A stretch of 64,000 nt of DNA from an uncultured archaeon (GCA_964537525.1 CAZIAB010000001.1:425-64424), one strand, 5' to 3'. Numbered from the stretch's first letter, positions 24,285 to 64,000 are shown. Numbers and translations: made by a program. The notes: generated by a model not told the origin, from the letters alone.

Positions 24285-27200
24285 TTACGTCTTTGAGCTG
24301 AGCCTCTTTATCATGCTTATCTCTTCTTTCCTCGTCGTGGGGATTGCCGCAGGAGCGTTTATCTCAACAGGCGTTCCAGAGACTTCCGGGTAGACAATCT
24401 TTATCTCCTTCTTATTTTCGGTCTGAATCTCCTTCCATGCCCCAAGCTGGCCTGCCAAGTAGTCGACCTTGTTCTTGAAGGCATCCATCTCAGAATCCAT
24501 TATGTCCTCGTTTGTCTTTATCCGGGTCTCTATCTCGTCCCTGAGCTCGCTGACCTTCTCTTCCACGTCCTTGCCGTAATCCTTGATGCTACCGAGCCTC
24601 GTCCTGAGTTCTGTCACGGTCTCGCTGAGCTCCTTTATGGTCTTCTCTGATTCGGACAGTCTCTTTACCATTTCCTTCTGCCCCTCCGACATCTTCTTCA
24701 TGGATTCCACGCCCATCTTCTCTATGCTCTCGCTGAGCTTCTCCTCTATGCCGGGCATGCTGGCAAGCTCCCTGCCGAAGTCCTTTATGGTTTCCTTTGT
24801 CCTCATCTCAAGGTCCCTCGATTCCCTGAGTATCTTGTCAAAATCCCGCTTTCTTCTCTCTTCTGAGAGCTCGATGTCGCCAGACATCTCTGAAATCTCC
24901 TTCTTGGCCTCGGCAAGGACCAGCCTCTTGTGGTCATCTAGCATGCTTCTCGTCCTCGTCTCGTGTTCCTTTGACAGGGATACCATATCCGATTCCATCC
25001 TGGATATTCTCTCCCTTTCTGCAGACAGCTCTCCCTGAAGGCCTCTTATCTCCTTCAGGTATGCCTTTCCCTCATCCTCCAGCGTCTCCATCTTCTCTGT
25101 CATGTCCGAGAGGGAGGATATCTTTCCTGCCATCTCCTTTATCCTGGCAGAATTGCTGCCAAAGACCTTGAGCAGGGAGTCCATCACGGCAAGCTTCTTT
25201 CCAATCTCGTCTATCTCCCCTGCTGACATGTTTGAGATGTTTTCGAGGTTCGCGAGGCCTGATATCCTCTCCTTTATCCCGTTAATATCCTCAAGGCCGG
25301 ATTCTGTCTTCTTGGTCAGGGCAGAGATGCTGGATGATAATGACTTCTCCAGGACGGCTATCCTGCTGTTGAGGGAATTCTGGATGTCCTCCTGAGACGC
25401 CTTCAGCAGGCCAATGTCAGCTGCCGTCTTGTTGATTAGTTCCATGCCCTCGTCCAAATCAGAAGAGAGCTTGCTGTCCGTATCCATCCTTCCGGATTCG
25501 ATGTCATCGATCCTCTTGCTTATTGACTTCACGGTATTGATGAATTCTGATTCCTTGACCGTTCCCTTCCCGAGTCCCTCGCCCATCTTCGATAGGTAGG
25601 AAACCCTCTCCTTCATGACCCCAACATCTGCCATCATGCCCTCTGCCATTGCCAGGCTCTTTGCGAGGCTGCCTGAAACTATTGCCTGCGCCTTGAGCTC
25701 GTCATCAATAGATATCAGGTTCTCAGAGAGCTTGCTGAGCCTCTTCTCGTTGCCTGACACGTACGAATTGAGCTTCTTCTCCATGTCCTTTACCCTTGCG
25801 AGCCATGCCTTTGTATCATTGGTGTTCATGCCTGCCTGTTCCTTCCTTGCTTCCGCTATGTCCTGGGCCAGTTGCTTTATCCTGTCGTTTATTCCGGACT
25901 GCAGGGAGAGGTATGTTTCTTTCTGGTCACTTGAAAGCTGCTTCGCTCTCTCTTCAATCTTATTCTGGAGGGACAGGTTCATTTCCTTCTGGTCATCAGA
26001 GAGCTTCTTTGTTTTTTCGTCAATCTCGTTCTGGAGGGACAGGTTTATGTCTTCCTGTTCCCTGGAAAACTGCTTCGCCTTCTTGTCAATCTCAGAGCGC
26101 AGGGATGCAAGGATTTCCTTCTGGGATTCAGAGACCGTCCCTATGTACTTCCTCTGGTCACCTATCTCCTGCCTGATTGATGAGATGTCCTGGAAAATCC
26201 TGTCAAGCCTGGACTCCTTCTTGCTGTCCTTCCCTCCGAAGACCTTCTCCAGGGCAGCTATCCTCTGCCTCCCCTCGGACAGGTTCTCCTCAAGTGACTT
26301 GAGCTGCTTTGAAAACATCCGGAAAATCTTCGAGTTTGACTCGATGTCCGTTATCCTCGCCACGAGGCTTTCGACGTCATCATGAAGGGAAACGACATCT
26401 TTCTTTTGCTCCTCTGCCATCCTTCTAATCGTCTGGTTAATTTCAGAACGAACGGATGAAGGAACAGTCTTCTGTTCATCTGACAGTCTTCCGAGGATTT
26501 TCTTCTGTTCCCCAATCTCTTTATTGATTGCCTTGGAGTTCGAATCAATGGTTGCCATCCTTTCCGTGATTTTCTTGATGTCGTTCATAAGGCCAGGGAA
26601 GGTTTTCGTGTCCGATTCCATCCTGGTTATCCTTGTCATCAGCTTCCCGACGTCATCATGAAGGGAGGATGCATCTGTCTTCTGTTCACCTGCCATTTGC
26701 TTAATCCTCTGGTCTATTTCGGAGCGCATGGATGAAGAAGCGGCCCTCTGTTCATCTGACAGTCTTCCGAGGATTTTCTTCTGTTCCCCAATCTCCTTGC
26801 CGAACATCTTCGTGGCCGATTCGATACCACCTATCCTCTCCCTCGTGCTTTCAATCTCGTCAATGATTTCCGGGAGCGGCTTGGTTCCCATCTCGAGCGC
26901 AATCACCCTTCCCTTGACGTCATCAAGCTCCACGATTGCCTTGGGGAGGAGCTTTATGTTAGCAATCATCTCCTTTATCTTCTGCACCATGTCCATTGTC
27001 TTGGGTATCTGGCTGACGACCGCCTCCATGCCGATTACCCTCTCCTCGAGCTCATCAACGGATTTGGTGTTGTCAGAGACGTCAGCTACGAGATTCTCGA
27101 GCTTCGTGAGCCTGTCCCTCATCGAGTGCATGCTGTCAACGCTCTGCTGGACCGTCTTTGAGAATGACTCAAGCCTCACGAGCGTCTTTGAGAATTCACC

Positions 27201-29606
27201 TATGTCAGAGTCGTGCTTCCCTACCGCATCAATGAGCGGCTTGAGGGATGACATCTTTTCAGATAGTTTCTTTATCTCAGATTCGTGGCTGGATATTGAC
27301 TTTATCGGGGCATCCAGGGCAGCCAGCCTCTGGTTTATTGCCTTTATCTCCTTCTCGTGCTCGGGTAGCATGCCTATGTCAGCTATCCTGTCCTTTATCC
27401 TTGCTATGAGCTGCTGGTTCTTCGAAACGTCTGAGACCGCGAGGTCGAGCGCGACGACCCTCTCCCTGAGGGAGGCGATGAGCCCTGAATTCTCTGATGC
27501 CTGCTTTGAGACCGAATCGTAATCAGACGAGAGGGTTTTGGAATCAGAGAGTGTCTGCTGGATGGCTGACTTCATGCTCTCCATGTCAGACATTATTCCC
27601 GGGATTGCTGAAGCGGAATCCTGCAGGGAGGTCATGTCCTTCTGCATCCTGTCGAACCGCTTCTCCTGTGACTTCGAGTATCCGTCCATCTCAGAAGCCA
27701 ATCCTGAAAGGCGCTTCATCTCGTCAGAGATCCTTGAGAGCTGCTCGCCTTTCTCCTTGTCAATCCTCTTGTCCATCTCAGACCTTATGCTCTTTGATTC
27801 CTTGGCGAGCTTTTCATCGAGCATCTTCGAGAAGCTGTCAATGCCGTCAAGCCTCGAGCGGACAACATCTATCTCGGCAAGCGCGTTCCTCACGTCACCA
27901 ATCTCCCTGTCGAGCCTGTCCAGCCGGGATTCCTTCTTCTTGTCCGTCACGCCGAATTCCTTCTCTATGGCAGCTATCCTCTGCCTCTCCTCGGACAGGT
28001 TCTCCTCAAGTGACTTGAGCTGCTCTGCAAGGGACTGGCTCCTCTCTAAAAGAATCTCCTTTGCCTCGTTTATCTTGCCTATCGAATCCTCAACAGATGA
28101 GAGCCTCTTAGGGACCTCCCTGGTCATCGCGTCAATGTTCCGTGTCCTTTCACCGAGGGTTTCCAGAACACCCTGGTTATCCGATATCTGCTTGGAGGCG
28201 AGCTCCATCTTCGTCAGCCTCTCCCTCAGCTTCGCTATGGCATCAGAATTCTCCTCGAGGGTATCTATCCCTGATATCTGCTCCCTTATCTTCGCTATTA
28301 CCTCGGCGTTCGCCTTTGCCTGACCGGCTATGGCCTTGAGGTTGCCGGACATCCTGCTGTCAATCTCTGCAATCCTCTCGGATATTGCCTTCCTGACGGT
28401 CTCCTGGGTCCTGTCCATTATCTTCTCGTCAGAGGCCAGTTCCATGATATGCTTCTCTATGCTTGCCCTCTCAGAGGCGAGCATCTTGTCAAGCGAGAAG
28501 AGCCTGTTCTCCGAGTCCTCGAGCCGCTTGTTGAGGTTGGAGAAAAGGTCAGAGAACTCTGAACGGCTGACCGAATTCTTGGCAAAGCCGGTGAGCATGG
28601 ACTCTGCCTCGGACAGCTTCTGCTTGATTATCTTTATCTCAGAGGGCGCGTCCTCGAGCAGCCTGGATATCCTGGATAGCTCCGAGTCATGGGATTTCTT
28701 GTACCCCCTCATCTCCTCCTCGAGGTTGGATATCCTGTTTATCTCTGTCCTGAATTCCATCAGCTGGGCCTTGTTGTCATCGAGCCTCTTCTGGTCAAAG
28801 TCCTTCCTCATGGAATCGGCAGCCTTCTGCAGGTCCTTCAGGAGCTCTGACCTCAGCTCTGCGAGGGAATCGCCCTGGAACCTGGAGAGCTTCCCGAGCT
28901 TTGAGTCAAGCGTTTTTGAGAATTCCTCTGTGCTGTCTGCCCTCTTCCTCAAAAGCTTTATCTCCGCCAGCGTTCCCTCCAGGTCGGCCACGTTCTGGCT
29001 TATCTTGTAGAACGCGCTGTCCTGGGTCTTCTTGTATGCCCGGAATTCCTCCTCTATGCCGGCTATCCTCTTTATCTCCTTCCTGAACTCTGACATCTGG
29101 GACTTTATGTCCTGAACGCGCTTCTTCTCGAAATCATCCTTTATGGAGTCAATGTTCCTCTCCAGCTCCCTGACCATCTCCCTCCTCGTCTCCTCCAGCG
29201 ATTTCGATTGGTCGCGGAGGCTTGAACGCAGGAGGTTTACTGATTCGAGGTCCTTCTGCATCATGTTAATCTGATTTATTAGAGAGTTTATGACAGACTC
29301 GTCCTTGTCGCTTCTTTTCTTCTGCGAAGAAATCTCCTTCTCGATTCCGTCTATTGACCTGAGCTCGACGCCTATCTCTGCGAGCCTCTCCTTTATCGGT
29401 TCTACCTGGTTCTTGACGAAATCCATTATCTTCTGGCTCGCCTGCTGGTATGATTCCTGCATCCTGCTGAGCCGTTCGGAAAAGGAGTTGGACCTGGCTA
29501 TGAGCTCTTCCTTCTCCTTCTCGAGCGCGGCTATTATCCTTCTCTGCTGCTCCTCGTTCTTCTTGAGGCGGACCACCCCTGCCTCAAGCTCGCTGAGTTC
29601 CTTCAT
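24285..29606 (-). CDS. giant cytoplasmic coiled-coil protein (1773 aa) built from ~90-aa repeat units; no TM helix, no P-loop
   Basis: Essentially a continuous heptad-like E/K/R/L/S-rich sequence. Recurrent units have the form F-D/E-x-K-R...E-F-R/K-x-E-I-x-R-I...LEEE-x-R-x-Y-KK-x-x-DS...IK-x-L-R/K-K-R-x-D...FSK-x-LDSKLGKLS. There is no Walker A motif or SMC hinge. It overlaps the upstream 838-aa gene by 4 bp. Confidence 0.7.
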   Translation of the reverse strand: MKELSELEAGVVRLKKNEEQQRRIIAALEKEKEELIARSNSFSERLSRMQESYQQASQKIMDFVKNQVEPIKERLAEIGVELRSIDGIEKEISSQKKRSDKDESVINSLINQINMMQKDLESVNLLRSSLRDQSKSLEETRREMVRELERNIDSIKDDFEKKRVQDIKSQMSEFRKEIKRIAGIEEEFRAYKKTQDSAFYKISQNVADLEGTLAEIKLLRKRADSTEEFSKTLDSKLGKLSRFQGDSLAELRSELLKDLQKAADSMRKDFDQKRLDDNKAQLMEFRTEINRISNLEEEMRGYKKSHDSELSRISRLLEDAPSEIKIIKQKLSEAESMLTGFAKNSVSRSEFSDLFSNLNKRLEDSENRLFSLDKMLASERASIEKHIMELASDEKIMDRTQETVRKAISERIAEIDSRMSGNLKAIAGQAKANAEVIAKIREQISGIDTLEENSDAIAKLRERLTKMELASKQISDNQGVLETLGERTRNIDAMTREVPKRLSSVEDSIGKINEAKEILLERSQSLAEQLKSLEENLSEERQRIAAIEKEFGVTDKKKESRLDRLDREIGDVRNALAEIDVVRSRLDGIDSFSKMLDEKLAKESKSIRSEMDKRIDKEKGEQLSRISDEMKRLSGLASEMDGYSKSQEKRFDRMQKDMTSLQDSASAIPGIMSDMESMKSAIQQTLSDSKTLSSDYDSVSKQASENSGLIASLRERVVALDLAVSDVSKNQQLIARIKDRIADIGMLPEHEKEIKAINQRLAALDAPIKSISSHESEIKKLSEKMSSLKPLIDAVGKHDSDIGEFSKTLVRLESFSKTVQQSVDSMHSMRDRLTKLENLVADVSDNTKSVDELEERVIGMEAVVSQIPKTMDMVQKIKEMIANIKLLPKAIVELDDVKGRVIALEMGTKPLPEIIDEIESTRERIGGIESATKMFGKEIGEQKKILGRLSDEQRAASSSMRSEIDQRIKQMAGEQKTDASSLHDDVGKLMTRITRMESDTKTFPGLMNDIKKITERMATIDSNSKAINKEIGEQKKILGRLSDEQKTVPSSVRSEINQTIRRMAEEQKKDVVSLHDDVESLVARITDIESNSKIFRMFSKQLKSLEENLSEGRQRIAALEKVFGGKDSKKESRLDRIFQDISSIRQEIGDQRKYIGTVSESQKEILASLRSEIDKKAKQFSREQEDINLSLQNEIDEKTKKLSDDQKEMNLSLQNKIEERAKQLSSDQKETYLSLQSGINDRIKQLAQDIAEARKEQAGMNTNDTKAWLARVKDMEKKLNSYVSGNEKRLSKLSENLISIDDELKAQAIVSGSLAKSLAMAEGMMADVGVMKERVSYLSKMGEGLGKGTVKESEFINTVKSISKRIDDIESGRMDTDSKLSSDLDEGMELINKTAADIGLLKASQEDIQNSLNSRIAVLEKSLSSSISALTKKTESGLEDINGIKERISGLANLENISNMSAGEIDEIGKKLAVMDSLLKVFGSNSARIKEMAGKISSLSDMTEKMETLEDEGKAYLKEIRGLQGELSAERERISRMESDMVSLSKEHETRTRSMLDDHKRLVLAEAKKEISEMSGDIELSEERRKRDFDKILRESRDLEMRTKETIKDFGRELASMPGIEEKLSESIEKMGVESMKKMSEGQKEMVKRLSESEKTIKELSETVTELRTRLGSIKDYGKDVEEKVSELRDEIETRIKTNEDIMDSEMDAFKNKVDYLAGQLGAWKEIQTENKKEIKIVYPEVSGTPVEINAPAAIPTTRKEEISMIKRLSSKT
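25899..26160. repeat. 4 tandem copies of a 66-bp in-frame repeat (22-aa units QKExxLSLQNxIxExxKxLSxD) inside the 1773-aa coiled-coil gene
   Basis: ctgGAGGGACAGGtt... units recur at 25899, 25965, 26031 and about 26097 with the same period. The protein repeats are EQEDINLSLQNEIDEKTKKLSD / DQKEMNLSLQNKIEERAKQLSS / DQKETYLSLQSGINDRIKQLAQ. Confidence 0.7.
26400..26950. repeat. two direct copies of an approximately 276-bp in-frame repeat (about 92-aa units) inside the 1773-aa coiled-coil gene
   Basis: An identical 49-mer, tctgttcatctgacagtcttccgaggattttcttctgttccccaatctc, occurs at 26471 and 26747. The encoded units are INKEIGEQKKILGRLSDEQ(R/K)...SEI(D/N)Q(R/T)I(K/R)(Q/R)MA(G/E)EQK...SLHDDV..L..RIT..ES(D/N)(T/S)K. 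Confidence 0.7.
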
Positions 29607-32119: not shown

Positions 32120-32415
32120 CCTGAATCATACCCCCTGGAAACGGTTCTTCCCGGATACTGCAATTTTTGAGGAAAATTAGAAAGTTTTTTCCGGGTGAAA
32201 ATTTCCTCTGGAATTCTCATAGTAAATAATTATAAAGGGGCTATATAAATCAAAAAGGACTGCTTTTTATATGTTAATACTATTATGCTGATATTTGTTT
32301 TTTTCAGAAAAATCGCCCAAAAAAAGATACTGTGTATACGACTTTTTGGGGGGTAAGCCTCATTTTTCGTTTTTTACGGAAAATTTTATATTACACGCAT
32401 ACAATACTTTATTGC
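32120..32415. promoter_or_regulatory. about 300-bp markedly AT-rich divergent intergenic region
   Basis: Composition here departs sharply from the surrounding ~50% GC. It contains ttataaagggg, ctatataaatc, ttttatatgttaatactattatg, poly-T and poly-A runs, and TATA-like boxes on both strands. It sits between the 838-aa coiled-coil gene (-) and a hypothetical gene (+). Confidence 0.4.
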
Positions 32416-33072
32416 ATGATAAAGAAAGAGAAGATAACGGACTACAGGAACTTCTGGCTCATCTGGCTCAGCTGCGCAGGGAAACCAGACAAGGGAGAAT
32501 CGCTTTTCGGGATACAGAATGCATGGGACATCAAGACAAACTATCTCTATCATCATGAGACCGGTCTCGGAAAGCCCTTGTACGTGCATATGATAAGGAA
32601 AAACTACATCCGCAAGGAAAAGACAAAACTGGTCCCGAATTTTGCCTGGATAAACGAGTACATAAAGGAAATCGTTGGTGAGGGGGTGGGCAATACATGG
32701 TATCCGAGCGTCTTCATCGGCGGGCGGTGGCCGATTGTCCAGAGCTTCATAGAGAAGAACGCGAACGTGCTTTTCAGCATGGAGAACCTGAAAACTCTCT
32801 ATAAGGAAGATAGGAACATACTTGGCGAGTCCGGTCGTCACATCTTTACAGACATTTTCCTTTACGTAATCTTTTCGAACATGATACAATTCTGTAAAAA
32901 ATACCACGCTGACATCGTATTAAGAATCCTTTCTACTTTCATATCAGTGTTCGCAGACAGGGACCTGCTCAATTACATAAGGAAGATGCACAGCCAGATC
33001 GGTGATAACGTACCAGTATTGATATCCAATGAAGCAGAGATGAACAGGCTCATGTACCCATTTAAGTGGTGA
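32416..33072 (+). CDS. hypothetical protein, aromatic-rich (W/Y/F), no recognisable domain
   Basis: 218 aa from the ATG at 32416 (MIKKEKITDYRNFWLIWLSCAGKPDKGE...). The ORF-track start at 32332 is GTG and lies inside the AT-rich tract. The ORF is uninterrupted, but I recognise no homology, so confidence is low. Confidence 0.4.
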   Translation: MIKKEKITDYRNFWLIWLSCAGKPDKGESLFGIQNAWDIKTNYLYHHETGLGKPLYVHMIRKNYIRKEKTKLVPNFAWINEYIKEIVGEGVGNTWYPSVFIGGRWPIVQSFIEKNANVLFSMENLKTLYKEDRNILGESGRHIFTDIFLYVIFSNMIQFCKKYHADIVLRILSTFISVFADRDLLNYIRKMHSQIGDNVPVLISNEAEMNRLMYPFKW

Positions 33073-35701: not shown

Positions 35702-35703
35702 GG

Positions 35704-39301: not shown

Positions 39302-39326
39302 GTCATGTCCTGAGATGCAGAAGATG

Positions 39327-53060: not shown

Positions 53061-53072
53061 GTCTTACACCTC

Positions 53073-56000: not shown

Positions 56001-59000
56001 TATTATGGCCTTTGTCTCATAGTCAGAGAGCACGAGGCTGTAGTTCGTGTAAATCACGGTCAGGTTCAGGTCATATCCCCTTGCCAGGGATATGTTCGGG
56101 GCCGTTATGTTCATCCCCCAGAGGTTCGTCGTGTTGGAGAAGGTCAGGTTATTGAACGTCATCTGCTGGGACCAGGTCGCGTTCCTCATCACCAGGGTGA
56201 AGTTGAGGTAGTTGCTGTCGTTCAGGGGAAGGCCTCCATAGGTCACATTGGCATAGACCCAGGTGCTCTGGCCGGGGGTTATGTTTATGGTCGGGCTCGT
56301 CTCGGTGGGGCTCGTTATGTTGAGGGAATAGGGATGGACGCGGAGGTAGACAGTCGTGTATCTGGTCGGCGGGTCGGCGCTGACATTCTGCGTGGTAACG
56401 AGCCCGGAATAGTTGGTGAACGACGCGACGAAGGGCGCGGTGTAGTTTATCCTCAGAGTCTCGTAGTTTCCTATGGGCATGTAGAGCCTGGTGGCGTTTA
56501 TCCCTATGTAAGGGTAGATGTCGCCTGACTTGACGATGTCCAGTATCACGTATGCGTTGCCTATATTCTGTATCTCTATGTACCCGAAGGTGCCCGAAGT
56601 CTGGTGGCTTACCGTGACGTCAATCACTGGCGGGGTCTGCAGCCAGGAAAGGTTGAGAGGGACATTCACCACCAGGGTCACGGTGTCAGTTGAAAGGCCG
56701 GAGGCGTTGGCCTGGAGCGTCCCGAAGTACTGGCCCGTCTCGTACATCATCGGCACCCCCACATCAACGTTTACGTATTCATAGTCTCCCGGCTCTATCA
56801 GGGATATGTTGACGGGGTAGTAGGTCTGGGTGAAGTTCGAGCACACGGTACCGGAAAGGCAGTGGAAGGTTATGTTTGTGGCGTTGGCGTTTCCTATTGA
56901 CTGTATGGTCATGGTGCTGTTGTATGAGTTCCCGCCCATTATCACGTATGAAAGGTTTGCCTGGACTATGTCTATCATGGGATTCGGGAGGACGTTCACT
57001 ATTATGGAGGTCGTGTTGCTTCCTGCAGAGGAGTCAAGGTTGGTCCAGTTGGAGCTTATGTTCACGTAATACTCGCCAGGTAGCGTGCCGTTGACTATGT
57101 ATATCCTTGACTCGCCCGTGCCAGAGCTGTATTTCATTATTGTTCCCACGGAGAAGGTGTTCGGTATTGAGGTCCAGCCTGACGGGATGCTTATGTTCGC
57201 ATTGACGCTGTATGCGCGGGCGTATTCAGGCGACAGGGTGAAGTTGACGTCGAACGAGCTTCCGGTGTATAGCCTTACGTCAGAGATGTTCACGTAAGTA
57301 ACGTTGGGCTCTATGAGCATGGGGGTATTGGCGGCCCCGAGGACAGGGACCTTTGCGGTGCATCCCCAGAGTCCTGCGGTGTCGTTCGCGCAGACGCTGA
57401 TATTGTGGTAGCCTCCCGATGTTCCGTTATAAGTGACGTTGTAGACCGGCTTCAGCGCGCCGCTCATGTACTGCTTCAGGATGGTCCCGTTCGGGAGGGT
57501 CACGTTTATCCATGCCGTGCTCACGTCGAAATTGTCTGTTATGCGAGCGGATATGTTCACGACCTCGAACCCTACCTCGAATACCATAGGGGTTATGTTG
57601 ACCTGGGTTATGTTCGGGGGTATGTCCGTGACATTAAGATAGAAGTCTGTCCCGTATTCGTTCGGTGTTGCGGTGGTGTTCCTTGTCAGCAGGTTGACAT
57701 AATAGAGTCCCTGCTGCTGTCCGGAAAGAATCTGGTAGTAGACCGAGACGTTCCTCCTGGTCTGCTTGTCAAGGTCGAAGTAGCTCGGTTCCGTATAGAC
57801 AAGGTCTGTCCCATTGCCGAGCTTGTAGACCCTGAAGGCGGTCTTCCTGTTGCCGGTGTTGTAGACGCTTATGTTGCCTATGAACCCTGATGTATTGAGT
57901 AGGGCAAGGACCTTTGTGAAGTTGGTCGGGGTCCTCCACCACGAGGTGTTGAGAGGAACGGTTATGTTTATCATGGAATCGTCGGTCCCTGCGTTGCTCG
58001 TGGTTGCCCTCAGGTACGTCCAGTAGTCATCGGGGTCCTGGCCCGCGGGTATGATTGCGGTGAGCTGGACAGTGAAATTGTATCCTGCTGCGAGGAAGCC
58101 CTGGGTCGATGGGATTATCGTTATCTCGCACTCCGGGCATTCTGTCGCGAAGTTGCCTGCGGCGTCAACGAGAGCGAGCTCTATGTCCTCCACCGCGTCG
58201 TTGCCCGAGGAAACGACCGTCACGCTCCCTATATAGGTCGTCTTGTCGTGCGGGGTGGTGTTGTGCAGGTAGCTGGGCGTTATCTCCACCACCGGGTTGG
58301 AAGAGACGTCAAACATGGTGTAGTTGCTGCTCATGTTCGTGGTCAGTTCCGGGTTGGTCCACGAGGCATTGACCCAGAGCTTTATAAGCATCGGGGGCGT
58401 TCCCTCAGGGACCCTGACATGGAGGTCCCACGTGCAGTTATCCCATGGGGCCATGTCGCCGCACGACTGGAAGGTGTCGTTGATTTCTATGGTGTCGTTG
58501 GGCTCATCGTAAGCAATCAGCTCGACGTCATACATGTTCGCCGGGCCCTCGCTGGTGAAGTTGACCACGAGGTCAACCTCGAAGTCATTGGACTGCGTTA
58601 TGCCATTGACCAGGACCTCATAGGTCGTGTAGACCCTGCCCCACGACTTGCCCCAGACGGAAAGGTTGCCCGCGTAGCTGTAGTTCTTGTTGTATTCCCA
58701 GCCGAGGTCCCTGGCCCAGACCGTGACGGCGTGCTCACCGTCTATCAGCGGGACATAGGTGAGCCTGTATAAATCTCCGCTGGGGGTCATGTTGGTCATG
58801 GTGTGGTTGTGGATGCTGCCGTTCGGGAGCTCTATCTGCGCCCAGACCAGGTCGACCCCTATATCGTCTGTCACGTTCGCCGTTATGTTGGTGTAGTTCA
58901 GGTTCGCCTCGAGGCTCACGTTCGGGATGGCCGATACGTTGGTTATGACGGGGGGTGTCACGTCGCGGACGTAGAGGCTTCCCTCTGCCTGGTCCGTGTG

Positions 59001-62000
59001 GACGATTATCTCCATCTCAGGGGCATCCGTTATGTTGCACTTGAAGGTTATGTTACCCTTCTGCACGGGCTCGAATGTGTAGTTCGTATAGCCCGTGCTG
59101 TTGGTGGTGAAGTTCTCTATGAACTGGTAAGGCTGGCTGTACCAGTGATACCAGAGATCGACGTCATAGTTCGGGATGCCGTTCATGGATTCCGAGTCGA
59201 TGACCCTGCATATGGTAGTGAAATTTATTGGGTAGGGGAGCTGCGTCCCGTTCGTTGGGTATATCCACTGGACTATTGAGAGGCCGGAAACTATTATGGT
59301 CACGTAATCCTCGCCGGATGCGTAATAGGTCTTGCTGGCGTTGGCCTTGATTGTCCGGTTTCCGGTCGCCTGGTTGCTCAGGTTTAGCGGCCTGGAGATG
59401 CCATCGCCAAGGTAGGAGCTTTCATTCCACCAGAGAGGGTTGGTTGTCGCGGTCATGTCATTTCCCATCTCGTCTGTTACGTCAACCGTAAGCGTCACGG
59501 TCTCGTTCTTTGCGTATGCGGTGTTGTTCTCAGGGGATGTTATGTTGAGGATAAGGACGCCCCTCACCTCGAGGTATGTTTCGTAGGTGTCGGAATCCTC
59601 TAGCCCGCTCTTGGTTGCATTGATGTATACGGTGTAGTTGCCGGGGTTGATGGTGTCAGTGACGTTATAGGTGATGTTGCAGTTGCCCACGGAATTGGTT
59701 ATGCAGAAGTCTATGAAGCCGGTAGAGTTCCAGAACGTGACGTTCGCCCCTGCCGCATTGCCCACGTTGGCGTCCTTAACGTGCACGTCTATCTCTGTCT
59801 CGTGCGGGCTATAGCTGTCGTTCCTGTATATCCATGCCTCCGAGAGGTCGATGTCGTCTATCTTGAGCTGTCTCCTCACCCTTATTATGGACGTCCTGTA
59901 GCTCATGTTCGTCGTGGTGTTGTAGTAGAGAGTGCTGTCGTTGCCTATGGTGCAGGTTATGTTGTAATAGTCAGGACTCTCGAGCCCGGTGTTCCAGTTC
60001 CACGTTGCCTCGCCAGTCCCGTCGCTGTCGTCGCTGTCCTGGTATGTGCCGTTCTTGTAGAAGGACACGTTGTATCCCGTTATTACCTGGTTGGTGTTGT
60101 TGTCCCGGACGTAGCACCTCAAGGTCACCCACGTCCCTGCATCGACCTCTGTCCCGTTCGCTGGCAGGATGTTATAGACCCAGCTCCATCCATAGACAAG
60201 GACGCTGGTCTGGTTGTTGCCCAGGTCGAAATACTGCCTCGTGGCGTTCATCCTCAGTATCTCGGAGCCGAGGACGTAGTTATAAGGAACGAGCCACGTC
60301 GAGTTATACCACCCCTGGCTCCCGTCAGTGGTGTCGTTGATAAGAATCCAGCTCTCGTTGAACCAGTAGGCATGGGAATCGCTTATCTGGTTGCCGCATT
60401 CGTCGCCTACCGTGAGGTTCAGCGTTTCCGTGACGTTCCTGTTGAGGACCTGGCCTGAGGAGGGGCTGGTGGTGTTCACGTAAAGCTGGCCGTAAACGGT
60501 GAGGGGCCTCGCCGACGCGTTCAGCGGCTGGTAGCATGAGTCTGAAGTCCCTCCAATCCAGTACTGGACCCCGACATCGGAACCGCAGTCAGGAGGATAG
60601 TCCACAGAGCACCTCCCGCTGTCCGCGGTGGTGCAGTCCATCTCCACGGTGTAGTTGGCGTGGTCCTCTGTGACCCAGACCTTGCCGTCCGTCCCGTTGG
60701 GGTATTCTCCCTCGTCGTAATCGTAAATCACGAATTCGAGGAAGGCAGTCTGGGAGCCGAGCCTCCTTACGGTAGAGTTGGAACTGCCCAGGCTGAAGCT
60801 CACGTTGTCGGCCTCTATGGTGAAGTTGTAGGGCCCTATCTCGTCGCTGAAGTTGAACTGGTCAACCGTCATGAACCTGTACTGGTTGACGCCCATGTCA
60901 GCGCACGTGAACTCCTGGTAGAAGTATACGTATTTCCCGATGAGGTTGTTCTTGTAGGTCTCGTTTATAAGAGTCCAGTTGGTCCAGTCCCCGGCAGTCT
61001 GGTTCCATATCCTCTTCCACAGGGTCACGTTGTTGTAGTTGCCGTCATTGTCGGTCACCCTCACGGCAAAGGTGAACGTCCTTCCCCAGCCGTCAAGCGT
61101 CGGGCTGACGCTCGGGTTGGAGAGCACAGGGGCAAGCCCGAGGAAGAACTTGTTGATATAGAAGGACTCGTTGTTCCCGTAGAAGGTCTTGGAAACCACC
61201 ATGCTCAGGTTATACCAGCCTGTCCCCCTCGCTGTGTCGAGCCATGTAAAGTTATACCAGCCTCCGCCCTCGGACCATGAGCCGTACGAGCTTGTGTTGT
61301 GTATCGGGTTCGTGTTGCTCCTGTTGTAGTAGTTGGGGAATATCATCATGCTGTATATGACATTCGCGTCCGCAACCATCTCGCAGTCATCGTTTATGGT
61401 GCCGTTCATTATGACCGGCTGGCCCCAGAGGAATCCCTCGCCGTTCGGGTAATGTATTACCGGAACCAGGTTGCTCTTTATCGTAAGGTTGTATTCGCTC
61501 GAGTTGGCTGACTTGAAGCAGGTATCGTTCTGCAACCCTCCGGAGCCACCCTTCCATATCTGGTTTCCTGTCGTGTAGTTGCATTCCTGTATTGGCGCGT
61601 CCGTGGGGAAGAAGTAGCTTATGTGGCCGCTTCCGTTGGAGACCGTGGTTATTCCCGGGTCCCATGAGGTCGGGTCTGATGCGTTGGTGGTTACCCAGAA
61701 GCTCGCGTTCACGTTCGAGCCCGCGGTCATGCCCCTGTCAGTGTCCCATATGCGGAGGGAAAGCTCCTGCTCGTCGCTGCCGTTCCTCCAGACGTATTCG
61801 TCGTCTCCCATGTAATACTGGACCTGGACGTCGTCCTTCTCCACGGTGTAGTTGACGGGTGAGGTCTGGTTCTCCAGGGCAGGTATCCTCGTGTCCTGCG
61901 CGTGGAAGTAGTATTCCCATGTATCTATGTTGTTGCAGTCGGTTTCCTGCCACGAAAGTATTGCGTTCTCCGATATCGGACCGTAGAGGGTGGTAGTGTT

Positions 62001-64000
62001 GACCGGCGAGCCCCAGAATGCCTCCCCGTATTTCCTCACGAAGAGCTCGAGCGTCACGTTGTCGAGGTCCTCGTCGGTAACGTTGACGCTGAAGTAGAAC
62101 CTCTCGCCCCACCCACCCGGATTCGTGAGGGGAAGCGTATCATTGAGGACAGGGGTAGTGCTCACAAAGAAGTGGTCTGCCTGATAATCAGTTCCGTTGT
62201 AGTAGAAGTTGCTGAATGATGTGGTTGTCGTTGAATACCACCTTGCCAGCTTACCTGCCGTCCCCCAAGTGCAGTTGTAGTAACCGGTCGTCTGGTTAGT
62301 TACTGGTGTGCAGGAGAAATTCGCGCTGCTCTCGTGGGTAAGCGTGAAGGACGCGTTCACGTCCTCCCTGAACATGTCGCAGTCGTCGTCAACGAACACC
62401 TCCATGGTGACGTCCTCCACCCCCCTCTCGAAATCGTCACCTATGCTGGGCTCTGTTATGTCATTGTACAGGTTGCCCCAGATGCTCATGTTGTATTCTG
62501 GGGTGACGTTGTTGTAGTAGCACGAGTCGGTTATCTGCGCGTACCACGTCTGGTTCCCTGGCCTGTAGACAGGGACGTCGCAGCCGGGGTCGAAGTATAT
62601 GTTTGAATATCCGGAGGTGTTAGTGGTGTTGTCTGTCCCGTAGTCGTATTCAGAGCCGTTATAGGTGACGTAGAGCGTCACGTTGTAGCCGCTCCCTATC
62701 AGCTCGTTCTTTATCAGGTCCGTTATGTTGACTGTTACGAGTGCCGTCTGGGTCCCTGTCCTGTTGGCGACCGAGTGAGAGAAGACGCGCTCTATCTTCG
62801 CAATGTCTGTGGTTATGTTGGGACCGGAGACGTTGTTCGTGTAGTTCGTGTTGGTGCCGTCCATTATCTTGAAGTGGAAGAGGTTGTCGTCACCTATGTG
62901 GCTGCAGTCGAAGTTCCCAACGCTCAGGTTGCACCAGTCCCTTCCACCTATTATCGTGGTGTTGTTCATGAGTACGTAGGACGACCCTCCGTTGGTGGAT
63001 ACGTAGAGCTCGCAGGTCACGTTGTCCTGCTGGGTGTCCCAGATATAGGTAGAGTATTCGAAAACGTCACCCCATCCGCTCTGGTTGGGAGTCAGGCCGG
63101 TCTGGTTTATCGTGGGCGGCGTATTCAGCAGGAATATCCAATCGTCCCAGACAGTGGAGTTGCTGTTGTACCAGGGCTTGCTGGAGTTGAGCCTTATGTC
63201 CCAGTACCCGCCCATGTGGAACGAGGTGTCCCACGTGTAGTTATACCAGCCGCTTCCCTCCTCCTCAGGGGAGTAGGACTCCCATTCATCGAGGGGCGAA
63301 CTGAAGGAGATGTCGGTTGCTGCGGAATCCTGCATGTCGCTCATGCCGCAGTCCGTGGTGACGTTGAACCTGGAGATCACGGAGTCACCCACGGCAATGA
63401 TGTCATCCTCATCCGGAAGTTCCAGGTTGTTCTTAAGCTGGCCGATTATGCTCATGTTGTAGCTGCTTCCGAAGGCAGGGGTGTAATAGCATTCGTCCTC
63501 GGACGTTATGTTGGCCCTGAACCTGTGCGTGCCCGCCGTGTAGAAGGGAGTGCACAAGGGGTCAAAATAGATACCCAGGTCACCGCTGGAATTTGTCTGG
63601 TTGAGCGTTCCTGAATCCCAGTCATTCAAATCAGTTCCGTTGAGGTTGACGAATATTGTTCCGTTCACCCCTCCGCTGGTTATGATGTCGCTGCCGTTGT
63701 CAAGGTCTATGAAATAGAATGCGAGGTAGCTTGTCTCAGAACCCTCCCTGTTGACCATGGAGTTTATGCTAAAGCTCCTTGGTATCGCGGTAAGCCTGTC
63801 CTTGAGCATGTCAAAGCTTCTCGTGTCCGTCGTGGACGTGTCGCCCCACATGTCAGTCGCGTTTATCTTGAAGTAGTTCGTTCCCACGTCATCGCACTCA
63901 AAGCTCATCGTCAGGTTGTACTCCTGCTCTCCGCTGGGTGTCAGCGTGAGGTTCGTAACGAGGGTCCAGTTATCTGTTGAGTTGTAGGACTTCCATAAAT
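53073..64000 (-). CDS. giant surface protein (more than 3640 aa, N-terminus beyond the window edge) fused by a single TM helix to a C-terminal cytoplasmic HerA/FtsK-superfamily (DUF87-like) P-loop ATPase domain
   Basis: The reading frame stays open to position 64000 (hand translation upstream of the track start gives ...LWKSYNSTDNWTLVTNLTLTPSGEQEYNLTMSFE...). Thousands of residues are N-x-S/T-rich. Near the C-terminus: a CPTDCP segment, then a PEPPPPAEGGGGGGAAGGAGAGAGAAAGAAGG linker, two CARDB-like domains and TM (WVTYLIMFMMIPAVYGGFYAWRWW). The cytoplasmic part has Walker A (GISAGSTGAGKTVSAMI...IPIIVFDPTAQWTGF), Walker B (LFIVYDEVHRLLPK) and a HerA-type arginine-finger region (REFRKWGIGIWLISQVLMDFKGAIRANISNEIQMRT). 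It ends in a coiled-coil with the SHOCT-like ...LKSRGLDVTDIEFELKLAKDKV. Confidence 0.8.
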   Translation of the reverse strand, partial: LWKSYNSTDNWTLVTNLTLTPSGEQEYNLTMSFECDDVGTNYFKINATDMWGDTSTTDTRSFDMLKDRLTAIPRSFSINSMVNREGSETSYLAFYFIDLDNGSDIITSGGVNGTIFVNLNGTDLNDWDSGTLNQTNSSGDLGIYFDPLCTPFYTAGTHRFRANITSEDECYYTPAFGSSYNMSIIGQLKNNLELPDEDDIIAVGDSVISRFNVTTDCGMSDMQDSAATDISFSSPLDEWESYSPEEEGSGWYNYTWDTSFHMGGYWDIRLNSSKPWYNSNSTVWDDWIFLLNTPPTINQTGLTPNQSGWGDVFEYSTYIWDTQQDNVTCELYVSTNGGSSYVLMNNTTIIGGRDWCNLSVGNFDCSHIGDDNLFHFKIMDGTNTNYTNNVSGPNITTDIAKIERVFSHSVANRTGTQTALVTVNITDLIKNELIGSGYNVTLYVTYNGSEYDYGTDNTTNTSGYSNIYFDPGCDVPVYRPGNQTWYAQITDSCYYNNVTPEYNMSIWGNLYNDITEPSIGDDFERGVEDVTMEVFVDDDCDMFREDVNASFTLTHESSANFSCTPVTNQTTGYYNCTWGTAGKLARWYSTTTTSFSNFYYNGTDYQADHFFVSTTPVLNDTLPLTNPGGWGERFYFSVNVTDEDLDNVTLELFVRKYGEAFWGSPVNTTTLYGPISENAILSWQETDCNNIDTWEYYFHAQDTRIPALENQTSPVNYTVEKDDVQVQYYMGDDEYVWRNGSDEQELSLRIWDTDRGMTAGSNVNASFWVTTNASDPTSWDPGITTVSNGSGHISYFFPTDAPIQECNYTTGNQIWKGGSGGLQNDTCFKSANSSEYNLTIKSNLVPVIHYPNGEGFLWGQPVIMNGTINDDCEMVADANVIYSMMIFPNYYNRSNTNPIHNTSSYGSWSEGGGWYNFTWLDTARGTGWYNLSMVVSKTFYGNNESFYINKFFLGLAPVLSNPSVSPTLDGWGRTFTFAVRVTDNDGNYNNVTLWKRIWNQTAGDWTNWTLINETYKNNLIGKYVYFYQEFTCADMGVNQYRFMTVDQFNFSDEIGPYNFTIEADNVSFSLGSSNSTVRRLGSQTAFLEFVIYDYDEGEYPNGTDGKVWVTEDHANYTVEMDCTTADSGRCSVDYPPDCGSDVGVQYWIGGTSDSCYQPLNASARPLTVYGQLYVNTTSPSSGQVLNRNVTETLNLTVGDECGNQISDSHAYWFNESWILINDTTDGSQGWYNSTWLVPYNYVLGSEILRMNATRQYFDLGNNQTSVLVYGWSWVYNILPANGTEVDAGTWVTLRCYVRDNNTNQVITGYNVSFYKNGTYQDSDDSDGTGEATWNWNTGLESPDYYNITCTIGNDSTLYYNTTTNMSYRTSIIRVRRQLKIDDIDLSEAWIYRNDSYSPHETEIDVHVKDANVGNAAGANVTFWNSTGFIDFCITNSVGNCNITYNVTDTINPGNYTVYINATKSGLEDSDTYETYLEVRGVLILNITSPENNTAYAKNETVTLTVDVTDEMGNDMTATTNPLWWNESSYLGDGISRPLNLSNQATGNRTIKANASKTYYASGEDYVTIIVSGLSIVQWIYPTNGTQLPYPINFTTICRVIDSESMNGIPNYDVDLWYHWYSQPYQFIENFTTNSTGYTNYTFEPVQKGNITFKCNITDAPEMEIIVHTDQAEGSLYVRDVTPPVITNVSAIPNVSLEANLNYTNITANVTDDIGVDLVWAQIELPNGSIHNHTMTNMTPSGDLYRLTYVPLIDGEHAVTVWARDLGWEYNKNYSYAGNLSVWGKSWGRVYTTYEVLVNGITQSNDFEVDLVVNFTSEGPANMYDVELIAYDEPNDTIEINDTFQSCGDMAPWDNCTWDLHVRVPEGTPPMLIKLWVNASWTNPELTTNMSSNYTMFDVSSNPVVEITPSYLHNTTPHDKTTYIGSVTVVSSGNDAVEDIELALVDAAGNFATECPECEITIIPSTQGFLAAGYNFTVQLTAIIPAGQDPDDYWTYLRATTSNAGTDDSMINITVPLNTSWWRTPTNFTKVLALLNTSGFIGNISVYNTGNRKTAFRVYKLGNGTDLVYTEPSYFDLDKQTRRNVSVYYQILSGQQQGLYYVNLLTRNTTATPNEYGTDFYLNVTDIPPNITQVNITPMVFEVGFEVVNISARITDNFDVSTAWINVTLPNGTILKQYMSGALKPVYNVTYNGTSGGYHNISVCANDTAGLWGCTAKVPVLGAANTPMLIEPNVTYVNISDVRLYTGSSFDVNFTLSPEYARAYSVNANISIPSGWTSIPNTFSVGTIMKYSSGTGESRIYIVNGTLPGEYYVNISSNWTNLDSSAGSNTTSIIVNVLPNPMIDIVQANLSYVIMGGNSYNSTMTIQSIGNANATNITFHCLSGTVCSNFTQTYYPVNISLIEPGDYEYVNVDVGVPMMYETGQYFGTLQANASGLSTDTVTLVVNVPLNLSWLQTPPVIDVTVSHQTSGTFGYIEIQNIGNAYVILDIVKSGDIYPYIGINATRLYMPIGNYETLRINYTAPFVASFTNYSGLVTTQNVSADPPTRYTTVYLRVHPYSLNITSPTETSPTINITPGQSTWVYANVTYGGLPLNDSNYLNFTLVMRNATWSQQMTFNNLTFSNTTNLWGMNITAPNISLARGYDLNLTVIYTNYSLVLSDYETKAIIYQDPYPPLISLYVPAKVPSNSTVEIITNATDTGGVKNATLTITYPDISTQVYDMTYLYMTGDIYTFRQYFSNTSQVGVHYASTTACDYSGNCNSTNTSFEIYPAVIFHGYTKDEEKIHKPAISVDFTLFVPGESTVLFNFASNATLGGYYNETIDMRAYDIRTDFLNETATLYNTYLQDDVYNPYMFGEIPNVRLPTKSLKGVWINTSQLNYTYGTVNFTSEECYTAGTCKTNDFSLTSLGIYRCSSWVLLSGCTNATGWTRLDTDVNTSSGIVTANSTTMTGAFVLAQYICGDRICHDDYGESNANCPTDCPIIIPEPPPPAEGGGGGGAAGGAGAGAGAAAGAAGGAPQIEIDSTLIYVVLDQGDYEIHSMEIRNNRNTPITVETSVQAGSPIWDMVTIERPLITVAGGQTEQIKIKLYSMPNTAPGIYTGDIITHLVELNKTYRTPVTINVVQVPIPLLDVAIKALTKTVAPGEEFRFEVTLVNMGETATVEDIVAEYKIKNLNTDEIITTMKETVGVEQKYAFRRNITIPYETPYDRYVIEANVSYWYGTKYAFASDAFEVTELPGLLVALRNVFMSWVTYLIMFMMIPAVYGGFYAWRWWKEKHKKKSRYIFPMDMKKLPQAGKDSFLIGRIAETDVNAYMDVRQLQTHGISAGSTGAGKTVSAMIAVEELLKRKIPIIVFDPTAQWTGFLRPCRDKKMLDLYPNFGLKPTDAKRFPGRLIKITDPETSIDVRNYMVPGEITVVLIDKMDPAQLDTFVRRTISDIFKIPWPEARELKLFIVYDEVHRLLPKYGGKGGYVALERGCREFRKWGIGIWLISQVLMDFKGAIRANISNEIQMRTKYTGDIRRVKQKYGSEYASTITKLKTGTGMFQNAEFNHGKPYFIEFRPLLHDVGRLSEVEINTYVKYDTELNEIEMEVARLKSRGLDVTDIEFELKLAKDKVRQTMFTMAKTYMDSVRNRIRKIGGTIK
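54955..55050. repeat. GC-rich low-complexity tract encoding the Pro/Gly/Ala linker of the giant ATPase-fusion protein
   Basis: cctgccgcccctgctgctgccccggcacctgccccggcaccgccggccgcgcctccgccccctcctcctt corresponds to PEPPPPAEGGGGGGAAGGAGAGAGAAAGAAGGAP in the minus-strand product. Confidence 0.6.

Follow-up and report, generated by a model that had tools for sequence, protein, structure and literature searches.

A conserved gene cluster around a predicted SPEARE-type giant surface protein of a likely DPANN archaeon

A 40-kb stretch of archaeal DNA, spanning positions 24285 to 64000 of the window (the whole stretch analysed here, 64,000 nucleotides in length), carries a giant gene whose predicted product has the published SPEARE layout, together with a set of partner genes that recurs in related genomes. 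The conserved core is a giant ATPase-adhesin, followed by a ~550-aa coiled-coil protein and then by a ~1,950-aa surface protein, with MinD. The SPEARE giant-protein family is already known, while the conserved set of partner genes around it appears new within the searched literature. We lean somewhat towards reading the locus as a SPEARE-type cell-surface apparatus of a DPANN archaeon that works as proposed below. In that reading MinD would position an apparatus for cell contact, which would be anchored to a cytoplasmic scaffold of coiled-coil proteins and, in this lineage, supplied with local regulators.

The source organism is known only from metagenomes. It is most likely a tiny, symbiotic-type DPANN archaeon of the phylum Aenigmatarchaeota, and its lifestyle is assumed from that of the phylum. 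A large share of the diversity of archaea is DPANN, and the prevailing view is that these organisms live attached to other cells; essentially none of the genes that build their contact structures have been assigned so far. The giant gene and its recurring neighbours are good candidates for the genes behind the cell-attachment apparatus of these archaea. SPEARE has so far been treated as a single giant gene; here it is one member of a conserved cluster of several genes whose partner families are defined. With a putative interaction motif in common and a candidate positioning ATPase, the vague "giant adhesin" becomes a concrete list of parts.

The features of the locus are collected in Table 1. 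A first-pass annotation had already listed most of them, and its account of the gene content largely stands: three sequon-rich surface proteins, three long coiled-coil proteins devoid of membrane helices, MinD, a single-domain KaiC with two apparently inactivated paralogs, and a set of two-component genes, with ppsA and tpiA directly upstream of the stretch. It missed the HerA/VirB4-like ATPase domain on the largest protein and the 218-aa gene. It had also described a tight operon. Two of its ATGA overlaps, at 29603 and 34787, and the gene junction at 51296/51297 are confirmed, whereas the overlap at 44715 is a convergent stop/stop overlap between genes on opposite strands and gives no operon coupling.

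Table 1. Features of positions 24285-64000, in descending order along the window
Feature	Position	Strand	Basis and remarks
Giant SPEARE-type protein	53073..64000	-	Translation; 5' end cut by the window end; at least 3,611 aa visible
Single TM helix of the giant protein	54195..54257	-	aa 3218-3238, WVTYLIMFMMIPAVYGGFYAW; aligned hydrophobic segment in homologs
Cytoplasmic HerA/VirB4-like P-loop ATPase domain with three C-terminal helices	53073..54158	-	Walker A/B motifs, family profiles, fold
587-aa cytoplasmic coiled-coil protein (cc587)	51297..53060	-	Three SHOCT-like motifs, aa 15-56, 424-466 and 560-583
1,972-aa surface protein (S1972)	45378..51296	-	Signal/anchor sequence; Ig-like array (MG2, NPCBM_assoc, CARDB; Pfam)
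SHOCT-like motif of the S1972 tail	45396-45527	-	aa 1924-1967
205-aa KaiC-like protein without P-loop	44715..45332	-	Last gene of the giant/587/1972 transcription unit; accessory
1,352-aa membrane/surface protein	40660..44718	+	Signal peptide, Laminin_G_3, NPCBM_assoc (Pfam); helical cytoplasmic stretches; accessory
Single-domain KaiC-like ATPase	39792..40646	+	ORF opens at 39705 (313 aa); probable ATG start 39792; accessory
Two receiver-only response regulators	39327-39698 and 38924-39301	-	PF00072, 100.7 and 97.1 bits
7TM-dCache-HAMP-HisKA-HATPase histidine kinase	35704-38955	+	Pfam
Double-PAS protein	34787-35701	+	Pfam
182-aa KaiC-like protein without P-loop	34242..34790	+	KaiC 26.9 bits against a cut-off of 26.6; DUF7504, DUF835 and DUF7090 matches
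Archaeal MinD-type ATPase	33264..34037	+	ORF opens at 33171; probable ATG start 33264
218-aa protein	32416..33072	+	N-terminal winged helix-turn-helix and helical C-terminal domain
838-aa coiled-coil protein (cc838)	29603..32119	-	No TM helix
1,773-aa coiled-coil protein (cc1773)	24285..29606	-	ATGA overlap with the 838-aa gene, translational coupling

The giant protein and its ATPase domain

The giant open reading frame stays open as far as position 64000 and extends further upstream in a relative that is 97% identical, so the visible length is a lower bound. The source contig, 65,190 nt long, reaches no more than ~1.2 kb past the window. Its ectodomain, ~3,217 aa in the visible part, is rich in sequons (N-x-S/T) and in Ig-like domains, with 191 sequons and an NPCBM_assoc match, and its Ig-like repeats are common to the other two surface proteins. 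Sequon density in the three surface proteins is 3.0-5.5 per 100 aa, about three times that predicted from composition. The coiled-coil proteins have 0.2-0.7 sequons per 100 aa, as expected from composition. Because the enrichment is confined to the proposed ectodomains, it supports a topology in which these lie outside the cell. The sequon distribution likewise suggests that the C-terminal region of the giant protein is cytoplasmic, and its sequon-rich ectodomain is probably heavily N-glycosylated. The genes for an AglB/STT3 oligosaccharyltransferase and for SecDF are located just upstream. A separate S-layer-like candidate is found at 14257-17433, near AglB.

The cytoplasmic domain carries a Walker A motif, GSTGAGKT, at aa 3295-3302 and a Walker B motif, FIVYDEVH, at aa 3420-3427. 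These motifs, its profile matches and its fold place it in the HerA/VirB4 clade of the FtsK-HerA ATPases, and its best fold match is HerA itself. Structure prediction was run on database homologs of the domain, and the three C-terminal helices correspond to residues 290-355 of the 361-aa model. Since only ~56 residues separate the TM helix from the P-loop, the usual N-terminal barrel domain is probably absent. ResIII Pfam matches occur in 7 of 18 family members, which explains the original "restriction enzyme" label. The domain family comprises 446 representatives of 50%-identity clusters at E<=1e-30; in the best 150 of these the domain stands at or near the C-terminus of proteins that are about 450 to 7,665 aa long. 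A locus from a Nanohaloarchaeota MAG is 61% identical in the ATPase domain.

These features match those of the SPEARE giants of Nanohaloarchaeota, described by Hamm et al. 2019 (PMC6642349) and later reinterpreted (PMC10266531). Their founding member is Ca. Nanohaloarchaeum antarcticus NAR1_1133, for which the Nanohaloarchaeota MAG locus serves here as a proxy. SPEARE proteins have a multi-thousand-residue adhesion/Ig-like ectodomain, one TM helix near the C-terminus, a cytoplasmic P-loop domain and a terminal coiled coil (PMC6642349; PMC10266531). The P-loop domain was first labelled ResIII (PMC6642349) and later VirB4/TraG-like (PMC10266531). Similar sequences are reported in Aenigmarchaeota (PMC6642349; PMC10266531), and Hamm et al. 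reported no homologs in Nanoarchaeota proper (PMC6642349). The predicted architecture of the giant protein, with an ectodomain, one TM helix, a cytoplasmic ATPase and a terminal coiled coil, is this published layout, and the DPANN distribution, including Aenigmarchaeota, is the same. The first-pass annotation could not place the locus among archaellum, pilus, hamus, S-layer or cell-division loci; through its giant protein it maps onto the published SPEARE-type family.

There are also differences from the published SPEARE proteins. Hamm et al. 2019 (PMC6642349) state that each SPEARE ectodomain carries one or more laminin-G domains. In the visible 3,611 aa of the giant protein, whose N-terminal part lies beyond the window, no LamG match and no protease-like or toxin-like region was detected; a Laminin_G_3 match is found on the 1,352-aa protein encoded nearby. 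The gene downstream of the giant in cultured nanohaloarchaea is reported to encode a second VirB4/TraG ATPase (PMC10266531), while here it encodes a coiled-coil protein, so that partner sets differ between phyla. The SPEARE papers make no mention of cc587-type, ~1,950-aa surface, MinD, winged-helix or long coiled-coil partners (PMC6642349; PMC10266531). Literature searches for a DPANN cluster of HerA, MinD, coiled-coil and giant proteins returned SPEARE papers only. No description of the partner-gene set was found in the searched literature, and a 2019 review of archaeal "dark matter" contains no such cluster.

The giant's ATPase also differs from the HerA/VirB4 translocases in its setting: it is fused behind a TM helix to a giant ectodomain, and it has neither NurA nor T4SS partners. 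A motor of this clade could drive a channel, and the locus might then encode a macromolecule transfer system, either a type IV or type VII secretion system or a Ced/Ted-type DNA transporter, with the leaderless coiled-coil proteins as its substrates or as an extruded filament. We regard such a system as improbable. Pfam scans of every large locus protein found no other T4SS, T7SS or conjugation component: VirB6/8/10, a relaxase, a pilin, the VirB4 N-terminal domain, a coupling protein and a polytopic channel were all sought and not found. In addition, the best fold match is HerA itself, and the coiled-coil proteins have no recognisable export signal or sequon enrichment. Because a HerA/VirB4-like ATPase is present, what had been pictured as a passive fibre becomes, in the SPEARE-type apparatus that we favour, a putative ATP-driven membrane machine.

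Conservation of the partner genes

Gene neighbourhoods were compared across ~150 related loci. For the giant gene, the comparison used 80 GTDB loci from a total of at least 582 matches, and the homologs align over 2,000-3,700 aa at 35-85% identity. Those loci that are named to phylum come mostly from Aenigmatarchaeota, with some from other DPANN, and some MAGs hold several copies of the giant gene. In 70 of 73 loci a ~550-aa coiled-coil gene is the first or second gene after the giant gene. Homologs of the ~1,950-aa surface protein (at least 1,000 aa) lie no more than 10 kb from the giant gene in 33 of 49 loci, and MinD does so in 23 of 49; the absence of MinD from about half of the loci and of the second surface protein from about one third is perhaps partly due to this 10-kb flank limit. 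MinD adjoins the 218-aa gene in 38 of 46 loci, and cc838- or cc1773-like genes accompany the latter in 27 of the 37 loci centred on it.

Clusters that are colinear and lie on one strand are present in eight relatives and contain the giant gene, cc587, S1972, the winged-helix gene, MinD, a gene for a ~89-aa protein, cc838 and further coiled-coil genes. The Aenigmatarchaeota cluster adds to the core two or three long coiled-coil proteins along with a new winged-helix protein, in many cases all encoded on one strand. Two components of these relatives were not found in the window: the ~89-aa gene, which encodes a TM-plus-coiled-coil protein and lies between MinD and cc838, and the additional coiled-coil genes (414-843 aa) located after the cc1773-type gene, which have no separate counterpart and match cc1773 only. 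The synteny that the first-pass annotation proposed to look for in related genomes is seen for the core genes, which are co-localised and often colinear.

Co-localisation of the core genes is far above chance. A chance neighbourhood of unrelated genes would sit well with the mixed gene orientation within the window and with the one claimed operon overlap that proved convergent. Nevertheless, core gene order and adjacency are kept in several DPANN phyla and between loci with protein identities down at 25-45%, and two of the families have a motif in common. We give a chance neighbourhood almost no credence. A mobile genomic island was also considered and rejected: there is no tRNA and no integrase-like Pfam match among the scanned proteins, and the cluster is inherited across the phylum.

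The motif links the cytoplasmic tail of S1972 with the cc587 family. S1972 has a TM helix at aa 1865-1887, followed by a cytoplasmic tail that bears the conserved SHOCT-like motif in an alignment of 47 homologs; cc587 has no TM helix and a single sequon. SHOCT tails had been assigned earlier, and this holds in part. The match of Pfam SHOCT (PF09851) to the S1972 tail is sub-threshold (16.9 bits against a cut-off of 27, E 0.005), and Pfam SHOCT has no match on the 587-aa or the 1,352-aa protein. A custom motif HMM, run on the predicted proteins of the ~150 loci, detects 69 S1972-type and 78 cc587-type proteins (the latter among 93 cc587 homologs) as against 3 others, and it does not detect the helices of the 1,352-aa protein. 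A specific SHOCT-like motif is common to the S1972 tail and the cc587 family.

The remaining partners are MinD, the 218-aa protein and the long coiled-coil proteins. MinD scores 203.5 bits with TIGR01969, above the cut-off of 201.75, and has the deviant Walker A motif GKGGVGKT at aa 41 of the open reading frame. The 218-aa protein has no Pfam or NCBIfam match, and its gene is specific to the cluster in Aenigmatarchaeota. A profile over 28 homologs of cc838 reveals a better-conserved segment at about aa 160-320 and a conserved C-terminus. Partial paralogy connects cc1773 (aa 130-341) with cc838 (aa 540-754), at 29% identity and E 9e-23. The three long coiled-coil proteins, all encoded on the minus strand, are not SMC or Rad50 proteins, an identity that the first-pass annotation had named as one that would count against its model: they have no ABC ATPase heads and no Walker A motif, and NCBIfam SMC/Rad50 models match their coiled-coil stretches only, at no more than 93.4 bits against cut-offs of 567-1087. 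The coiled-coil gene of one relative has a weak Rod_CreS match.

A proposed cell-contact apparatus

These parts suggest a mechanism. By analogy with HerA/VirB4 hexamers, the ATPase domains of the giant protein may oligomerise, which would gather the giant ectodomains into a fibre or portal at a single envelope site. The shared motif could allow the ~550-aa protein to bridge the tails of both surface proteins; the long coiled-coil proteins would form a sub-membrane scaffold, and MinD would place or assemble the complex. ATP hydrolysis might then power the translocation of a macromolecule or a mechanical change on contact with another cell.

MinD4 of Haloferax volcanii represents a type of ATPase that positions envelope machines. 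It and the MinD described here both belong to the MinD subfamily and have the deviant Walker A motif, and here the gene adjoins those for a large predicted envelope complex. The present MinD differs in being embedded in a cluster and paired with a cluster-specific winged-helix protein.

The same parts could serve a different purpose. The giant glycoproteins might form an S-layer-like wall or sheath, with MinD and the coiled-coil proteins as a cytoskeleton for shape or division and with the ATPase aiding export or insertion. Archaeal envelope proteins typically show a very high density of sequons and arrays of Ig-like domains, the AglB/STT3 and SecDF genes are close by, the cluster is widespread in the phylum, and MinD with CreS-like coiled coils would be classical cytoskeletal partners, of which the Rod_CreS match in one relative is a weak sign. 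The family ectodomains, however, range in length from ~450 to more than 7,600 aa (best 150 of 446 representatives), and some MAGs are multi-copy; such variation in length and number fits fast-evolving adhesins better than a lattice-forming wall protein. The window also holds a separate S-layer-like candidate near AglB, and the SPEARE data point to host interaction (PMC6642349). An envelope or cell-shape module is in our judgement unlikely, and a SPEARE-type contact apparatus is preferred.

Cryo-ET of a cultured DPANN archaeon, Nanobdellota YN1, showed that each cell has a single large attachment organelle that spans the envelope; its parts include a portal, a filament running between cells and bundles of filaments in the cytoplasm (PMC11420986). 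No genes have been assigned to this organelle (PMC11420986). A set of giant surface proteins and long coiled-coil proteins, together with a membrane ATPase and a positioning ATPase, might be able to form such parts, a resemblance that is morphological only. A bolder form of the contact-apparatus reading, which we put forward tentatively and think on the whole rather unlikely, is that the cluster holds the genes, long looked for, that build the attachment organelle or cytoplasmic bridge of DPANN archaea. Membrane-anchored ATPase hexamers would then be the portal motor beneath a bundle of giant-glycoprotein ectodomains, surrounded by an envelope structure assembled from the second surface protein and the SHOCT-motif adaptor. 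The filaments that cryo-ET shows in the cytoplasm or between cells would consist of the long coiled-coil proteins, and MinD would limit the machine to one site per cell.

Accessory regulatory genes in the cluster

KaiC, its two P-loop-less paralogs, the histidine kinase, PAS and receiver genes and the LamG protein form what reads as a lineage-specific insertion, shared with few relatives and located between MinD and the 1,972-aa gene. The single-domain KaiC-like ATPase scores 165.5 bits with PF06745 and has Walker A (GGPGSGKT), SFEES and Walker B (FVIVDS) motifs; it is apparently active. The 205-aa and 182-aa proteins are paralogs (30% identity, E 5e-18), and their alignment retains the hhhhDS motif and lacks a Walker A motif (no GxxxxGK[ST]). 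Compared with PDB structures, the profile of this P-loop-less family matches KaiC at E 2.8e-5 and FlaH at 0.0037. The two are predicted to be inactivated KaiC-like proteins, with a KaiC-like fold signal and a lost P-loop. The gene for the 205-aa protein is present in few related loci.

The 1,352-aa protein is found in close relatives only, three in number, and has 41 sequons. A hydropathy scan finds three hydrophobic segments, at aa 7-25, 947-965 and 1095-1113, and a fourth (WEWFFFFPGLFVLCFLI), close to the C-terminus, is based solely on inspection of the sequence.

Makarova, Galperin and Koonin are said to have described, in 2017, KaiC-like ATPases with degenerate partners as archaeal signalling hubs (cited in PMC6393860). 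The arrangement here is the same in that a single-domain KaiC and P-loop-less KaiC-like proteins lie beside two-component genes, and it differs in being an accessory insertion in a surface-machine cluster.

The first-pass annotation had made these genes integral controllers of a MinD-positioned fibre organelle, with a signal passing from kinase and PAS to CheY and a KaiC-like switch. Regulator genes do lie inside the cluster here and in four relatives. Two-component genes also occur at another position, after the coiled-coil gene, in five other Aenigmatarchaeota loci, and their occurrence at two positions suggests a real regulatory link; related two-component genes adjoin the cluster in eight loci. 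But of 49 loci, only 2 have KaiC and 5 have two-component genes within 10 kb of the giant gene, and degenerate KaiC-like genes occur in 3 of 63. As regulators are absent from most clusters, they are not core parts of the machine, and a role as integral controllers is very unlikely. The module that had been proposed is therefore conserved as regards the giant proteins, the coiled-coil proteins and MinD, which cluster in many genomes, and not as regards KaiC and the two-component genes. The giant open reading frame is intact (at least 3,000 aa and open to the locus edge) in 48 of the 80 relatives.

The chain from signal through KaiC switch to organelle is at most a local regulatory add-on. In the SPEARE-type apparatus, the inserted block, comprising KaiC and two degenerate KaiC-like proteins, the 7TM kinase, the PAS protein, two receivers and the LamG protein, probably adjusts expression or assembly in response to signals from the environment or from contact. 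Its insertion shows that lineage-specific sensory modules, two-component and KaiC-like, attach to such a machine. The block coincides with a modest dip in GC content, and one member of the 182-aa protein cluster carries the IMG name "KaiC/GvpD/RAD55 family".

Giant protein and gene layout

The core of the cluster is a protein of an already known kind. Its open reading frame lacks a stop codon up to position 64000 and extends further upstream in a 97%-identical relative, and the protein is therefore longer than 3,611 aa. SPEARE proteins of Nanohaloarchaeota consist of a giant ectodomain, a C-terminal TM helix and a conserved cytoplasmic domain, and SPEARE-like sequences were also noted in Aenigmarchaeota, Woesearchaeota, Micrarchaeota and Altiarchaeales (PMC6642349). 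The giant protein of the window shares this architecture and is SPEARE-type. The cytoplasmic part was later reinterpreted as a VirB4/TraG-like ATPase followed by a coiled coil (PMC10266531). ResIII Pfam matches, present in 7 of 18 members of the family, account for the original "restriction" label.

Close homologs of the ATPase domain number in the hundreds, the named ones coming from Aenigmarchaeota, Woesearchaeota, Nanoarchaeota, Pacearchaeota and similar groups. Searching a set with a single genome for each species gave at least 582 matching stretches, the best at 97% identity; among the best 80, records naming a phylum are mostly Aenigmatarchaeota and the remainder other DPANN. In a library of 1.84 billion proteins, 446 cluster representatives carry the domain at E<=1e-30, and in the best 150 of these it occupies the C-terminus, or a position close to it, in proteins of ~450 to 7,665 aa. 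One locus, a 3.5-kb contig of a Heimdallarchaeota MAG (L013), holds the domain at 63% identity, while it is otherwise found only in DPANN records; the probable explanation is incorrect binning, not a genuine presence in Asgard archaea. In another, L003 (JGI contig Ga0527077_0545), the predicted giant gene encodes 8,615 aa; several fragment ORFs behind it contain pieces of the giant protein and could stem from frameshifts in the assembly or from a second copy in decay.

Genes of the cluster and flanking features discussed in the text
Feature	Coordinates	Strand	Arrangement
RuBisCO large-subunit homolog	2021-3424	+	
AglB/STT3 oligosaccharyltransferase	10562-12904		
1,058-aa protein	14257-17433	+	~1.3 kb downstream of AglB/STT3
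cc1773, coiled coil, 1,773 aa	24285-29606	-	translationally coupled with cc838
cc838, coiled coil, 838 aa	29603-32119	-	translationally coupled with cc1773
218-aa protein	32416-33072	+	divergent from cc838/cc1773
MinD		+	divergent from cc838/cc1773
182-aa KaiC-like		+	divergent from cc838/cc1773
Double-PAS		+	divergent from cc838/cc1773
7TM-dCache-HAMP histidine kinase		+	divergent from cc838/cc1773
Receiver-only genes (two)		-	
KaiC-like ATPase		+	
LamG surface protein, 1,352 aa		+	
205-aa KaiC-like		-	unit converging on KaiC-like ATPase/LamG
S1972, surface protein, 1,972 aa	45378-51296	-	same unit
cc587, coiled coil, 587 aa	51297-53060	-	same unit
Giant protein	53073-64000	-	same unit

The first-pass annotation had listed three ATGA overlaps; those at 29603 and 34787 are genuine, whereas the one at 44715 is a stop/stop overlap of convergent genes. 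In the surface proteins, N-x-S/T sequons number 3.0-5.5 per 100 residues, roughly threefold the composition-based prediction, while the coiled-coil proteins show the frequency expected from composition and, in the window, no TM helices. GC content is 0.47-0.49 within 32000-40000 (the winged-helix, MinD, KaiC-like and PAS genes and the part with the receivers and KaiC), compared with 0.51-0.56 elsewhere, and much of this low-GC stretch lies inside a block that appears inserted relative to relatives.

Conserved partners and a common motif

Synteny was compared in 80 genome loci around the ATPase domain and 69 metagenome loci around the 218-aa protein, whose ORFs were called and then labelled by comparison with the window proteins. 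A cc587-type protein is encoded at most two genes after the giant gene in 70 of 73 loci. Within 10 kb of the giant gene, an S1972 homolog of at least 1,000 aa occurs in 33/49 loci and MinD in 23/49. MinD is the next gene after the 218-aa gene in 38 of 46 loci, and cc838- or cc1773-type genes lie near the latter in 27 of 37. Many contigs keep a single-strand order of giant, cc587, S1972, 218-aa gene, MinD, a ~89-aa TM protein and cc838, followed by one or two extra coiled-coil genes and then by housekeeping genes such as glmS (L102, L118-L120, L123). The ~89-aa protein (L102, L118, L123 and similar) is conserved and combines a single TM helix with a short coiled-coil segment; no counterpart was found in the window.

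The 218-aa family comprises 84 members, every one annotated "hypothetical" and none with a Pfam domain. Its fold, predicted with high confidence, consists of a winged helix-turn-helix at the N-terminus, similar to Rrf2/ArsR/MarR regulators, and a helical domain. In another Aenigmatarchaeota subgroup (L003, L024, L045, L064 and similar), two different genes replace the 218-aa gene between MinD and the S1972-type gene: one encodes a ~215-aa TM-anchored small-GTPase-like protein (Arf/Ras-type matches, GAKGSGKT...NKVD), the other a ~151-aa membrane protein with an HELGH (HExxH) motif and a weak Peptidase_M50 match.

The cytoplasmic tail of the S1972 family ends in a strongly conserved motif of ~44 residues, whose Pfam assignment to SHOCT is sub-threshold only. 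Searched with an HMM of this motif, 78 of 93 cc587-type proteins contain it once to three times, at the N-terminus, at ~75% of the length and at the C-terminus; beyond these two families, the HMM matches almost nothing among the predicted proteins of the compared loci. No other evidence speaks as strongly as this common motif for a physical connection of a surface protein with the cytoplasmic coiled-coil layer.

The cc838 and cc1773 proteins share paralogous modules, and cc838 has a better-conserved segment at ~aa 160-320. A canonical SMC/Rad50 identity, named at the outset as counting against an organelle, was checked for the coiled-coil proteins and rejected.

Regulators inserted in one lineage

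A rearranged cluster is seen in the window and in the relatives closest to it (L084-L088). Here the pair of coiled-coil genes has been inverted, and an insertion of ~11 kb separates MinD from the 1,972-aa gene; it encodes the degenerate KaiC-like proteins, the PAS protein, the kinase and two receivers, as well as KaiC and the LamG protein. The KaiC encoded by the 313-aa ORF is of the normal single-domain type. The proteins of 182 and 205 aa, paralogs of each other, belong to the KaiC-like clan and lack the P-loop.

Such regulators are rare in other clusters (KaiC in 2/49 loci, two-component genes in 5/49). In relatives, the conserved cluster consists of the giant, cc587, S1972 and MinD genes, and the KaiC and two-component genes are not part of it; the original observation is confirmed in part and its interpretation partly supported. 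Five further loci have two-component genes at a different position, suggesting that these genes were recruited repeatedly. At L021 and L023 the two-component block follows the cc587-type gene and encodes, among others, a protein of ~210 aa with weak similarity to CheX and one of ~526 aa that, by eye only, resembles solute-binding proteins; sensory input there may differ from that in the window.

Candidate function and flanking genes

The domain architectures, membrane topology signals, cluster conservation and common motif are established, and a mechanism can be proposed around them. The ATPase would oligomerise like its relatives and so cluster the giant ectodomains, cc587 would link the tails of both surface proteins, and the long coiled-coil proteins would form a sub-membrane scaffold. 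MinD would position the complex, ATP hydrolysis could power translocation or a mechanical step in cell-cell contact, and the inserted sensory genes may tune the system in this lineage. The same genes could instead constitute an envelope or cell-shape module, or a secretion or DNA-transfer system with the coiled-coil proteins as cargo or filament; against the latter, Pfam scans of the large proteins in the window's cluster turned up none of the other components of type IV or type VII secretion. In cryo-ET of a cultured DPANN archaeon, each cell bears a single huge attachment organelle that comprises a portal, a filament running between cells and bundles of cytoplasmic filaments; no genes were assigned to it (PMC11420986). 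By resemblance only, the cluster is an attractive candidate for an organelle of this type. The SPEARE-type core is known. No description of the conserved partner set, the common motif or the regulatory insertion was found in the papers searched.

Genes to the left of the cluster are ordinary archaeal ones, encoding a form-III-like RuBisCO, HMG-CoA reductase, diphthamide synthase, AglB/STT3, SecDF, PpsA and TpiA. The 1,058-aa protein has an N-terminal hydrophobic anchor or signal, abundant N-x-S/T sequons, a C-terminal TM helix followed by a Lys-rich tail, and no Pfam match; it possibly serves the organism as S-layer or envelope glycoprotein. The RuBisCO large-subunit homolog (PF00016, 289 bits) stands amid otherwise minimal housekeeping genes. 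Nucleotide-salvage RuBisCO is often reported in DPANN archaea, and the homolog fits this type.
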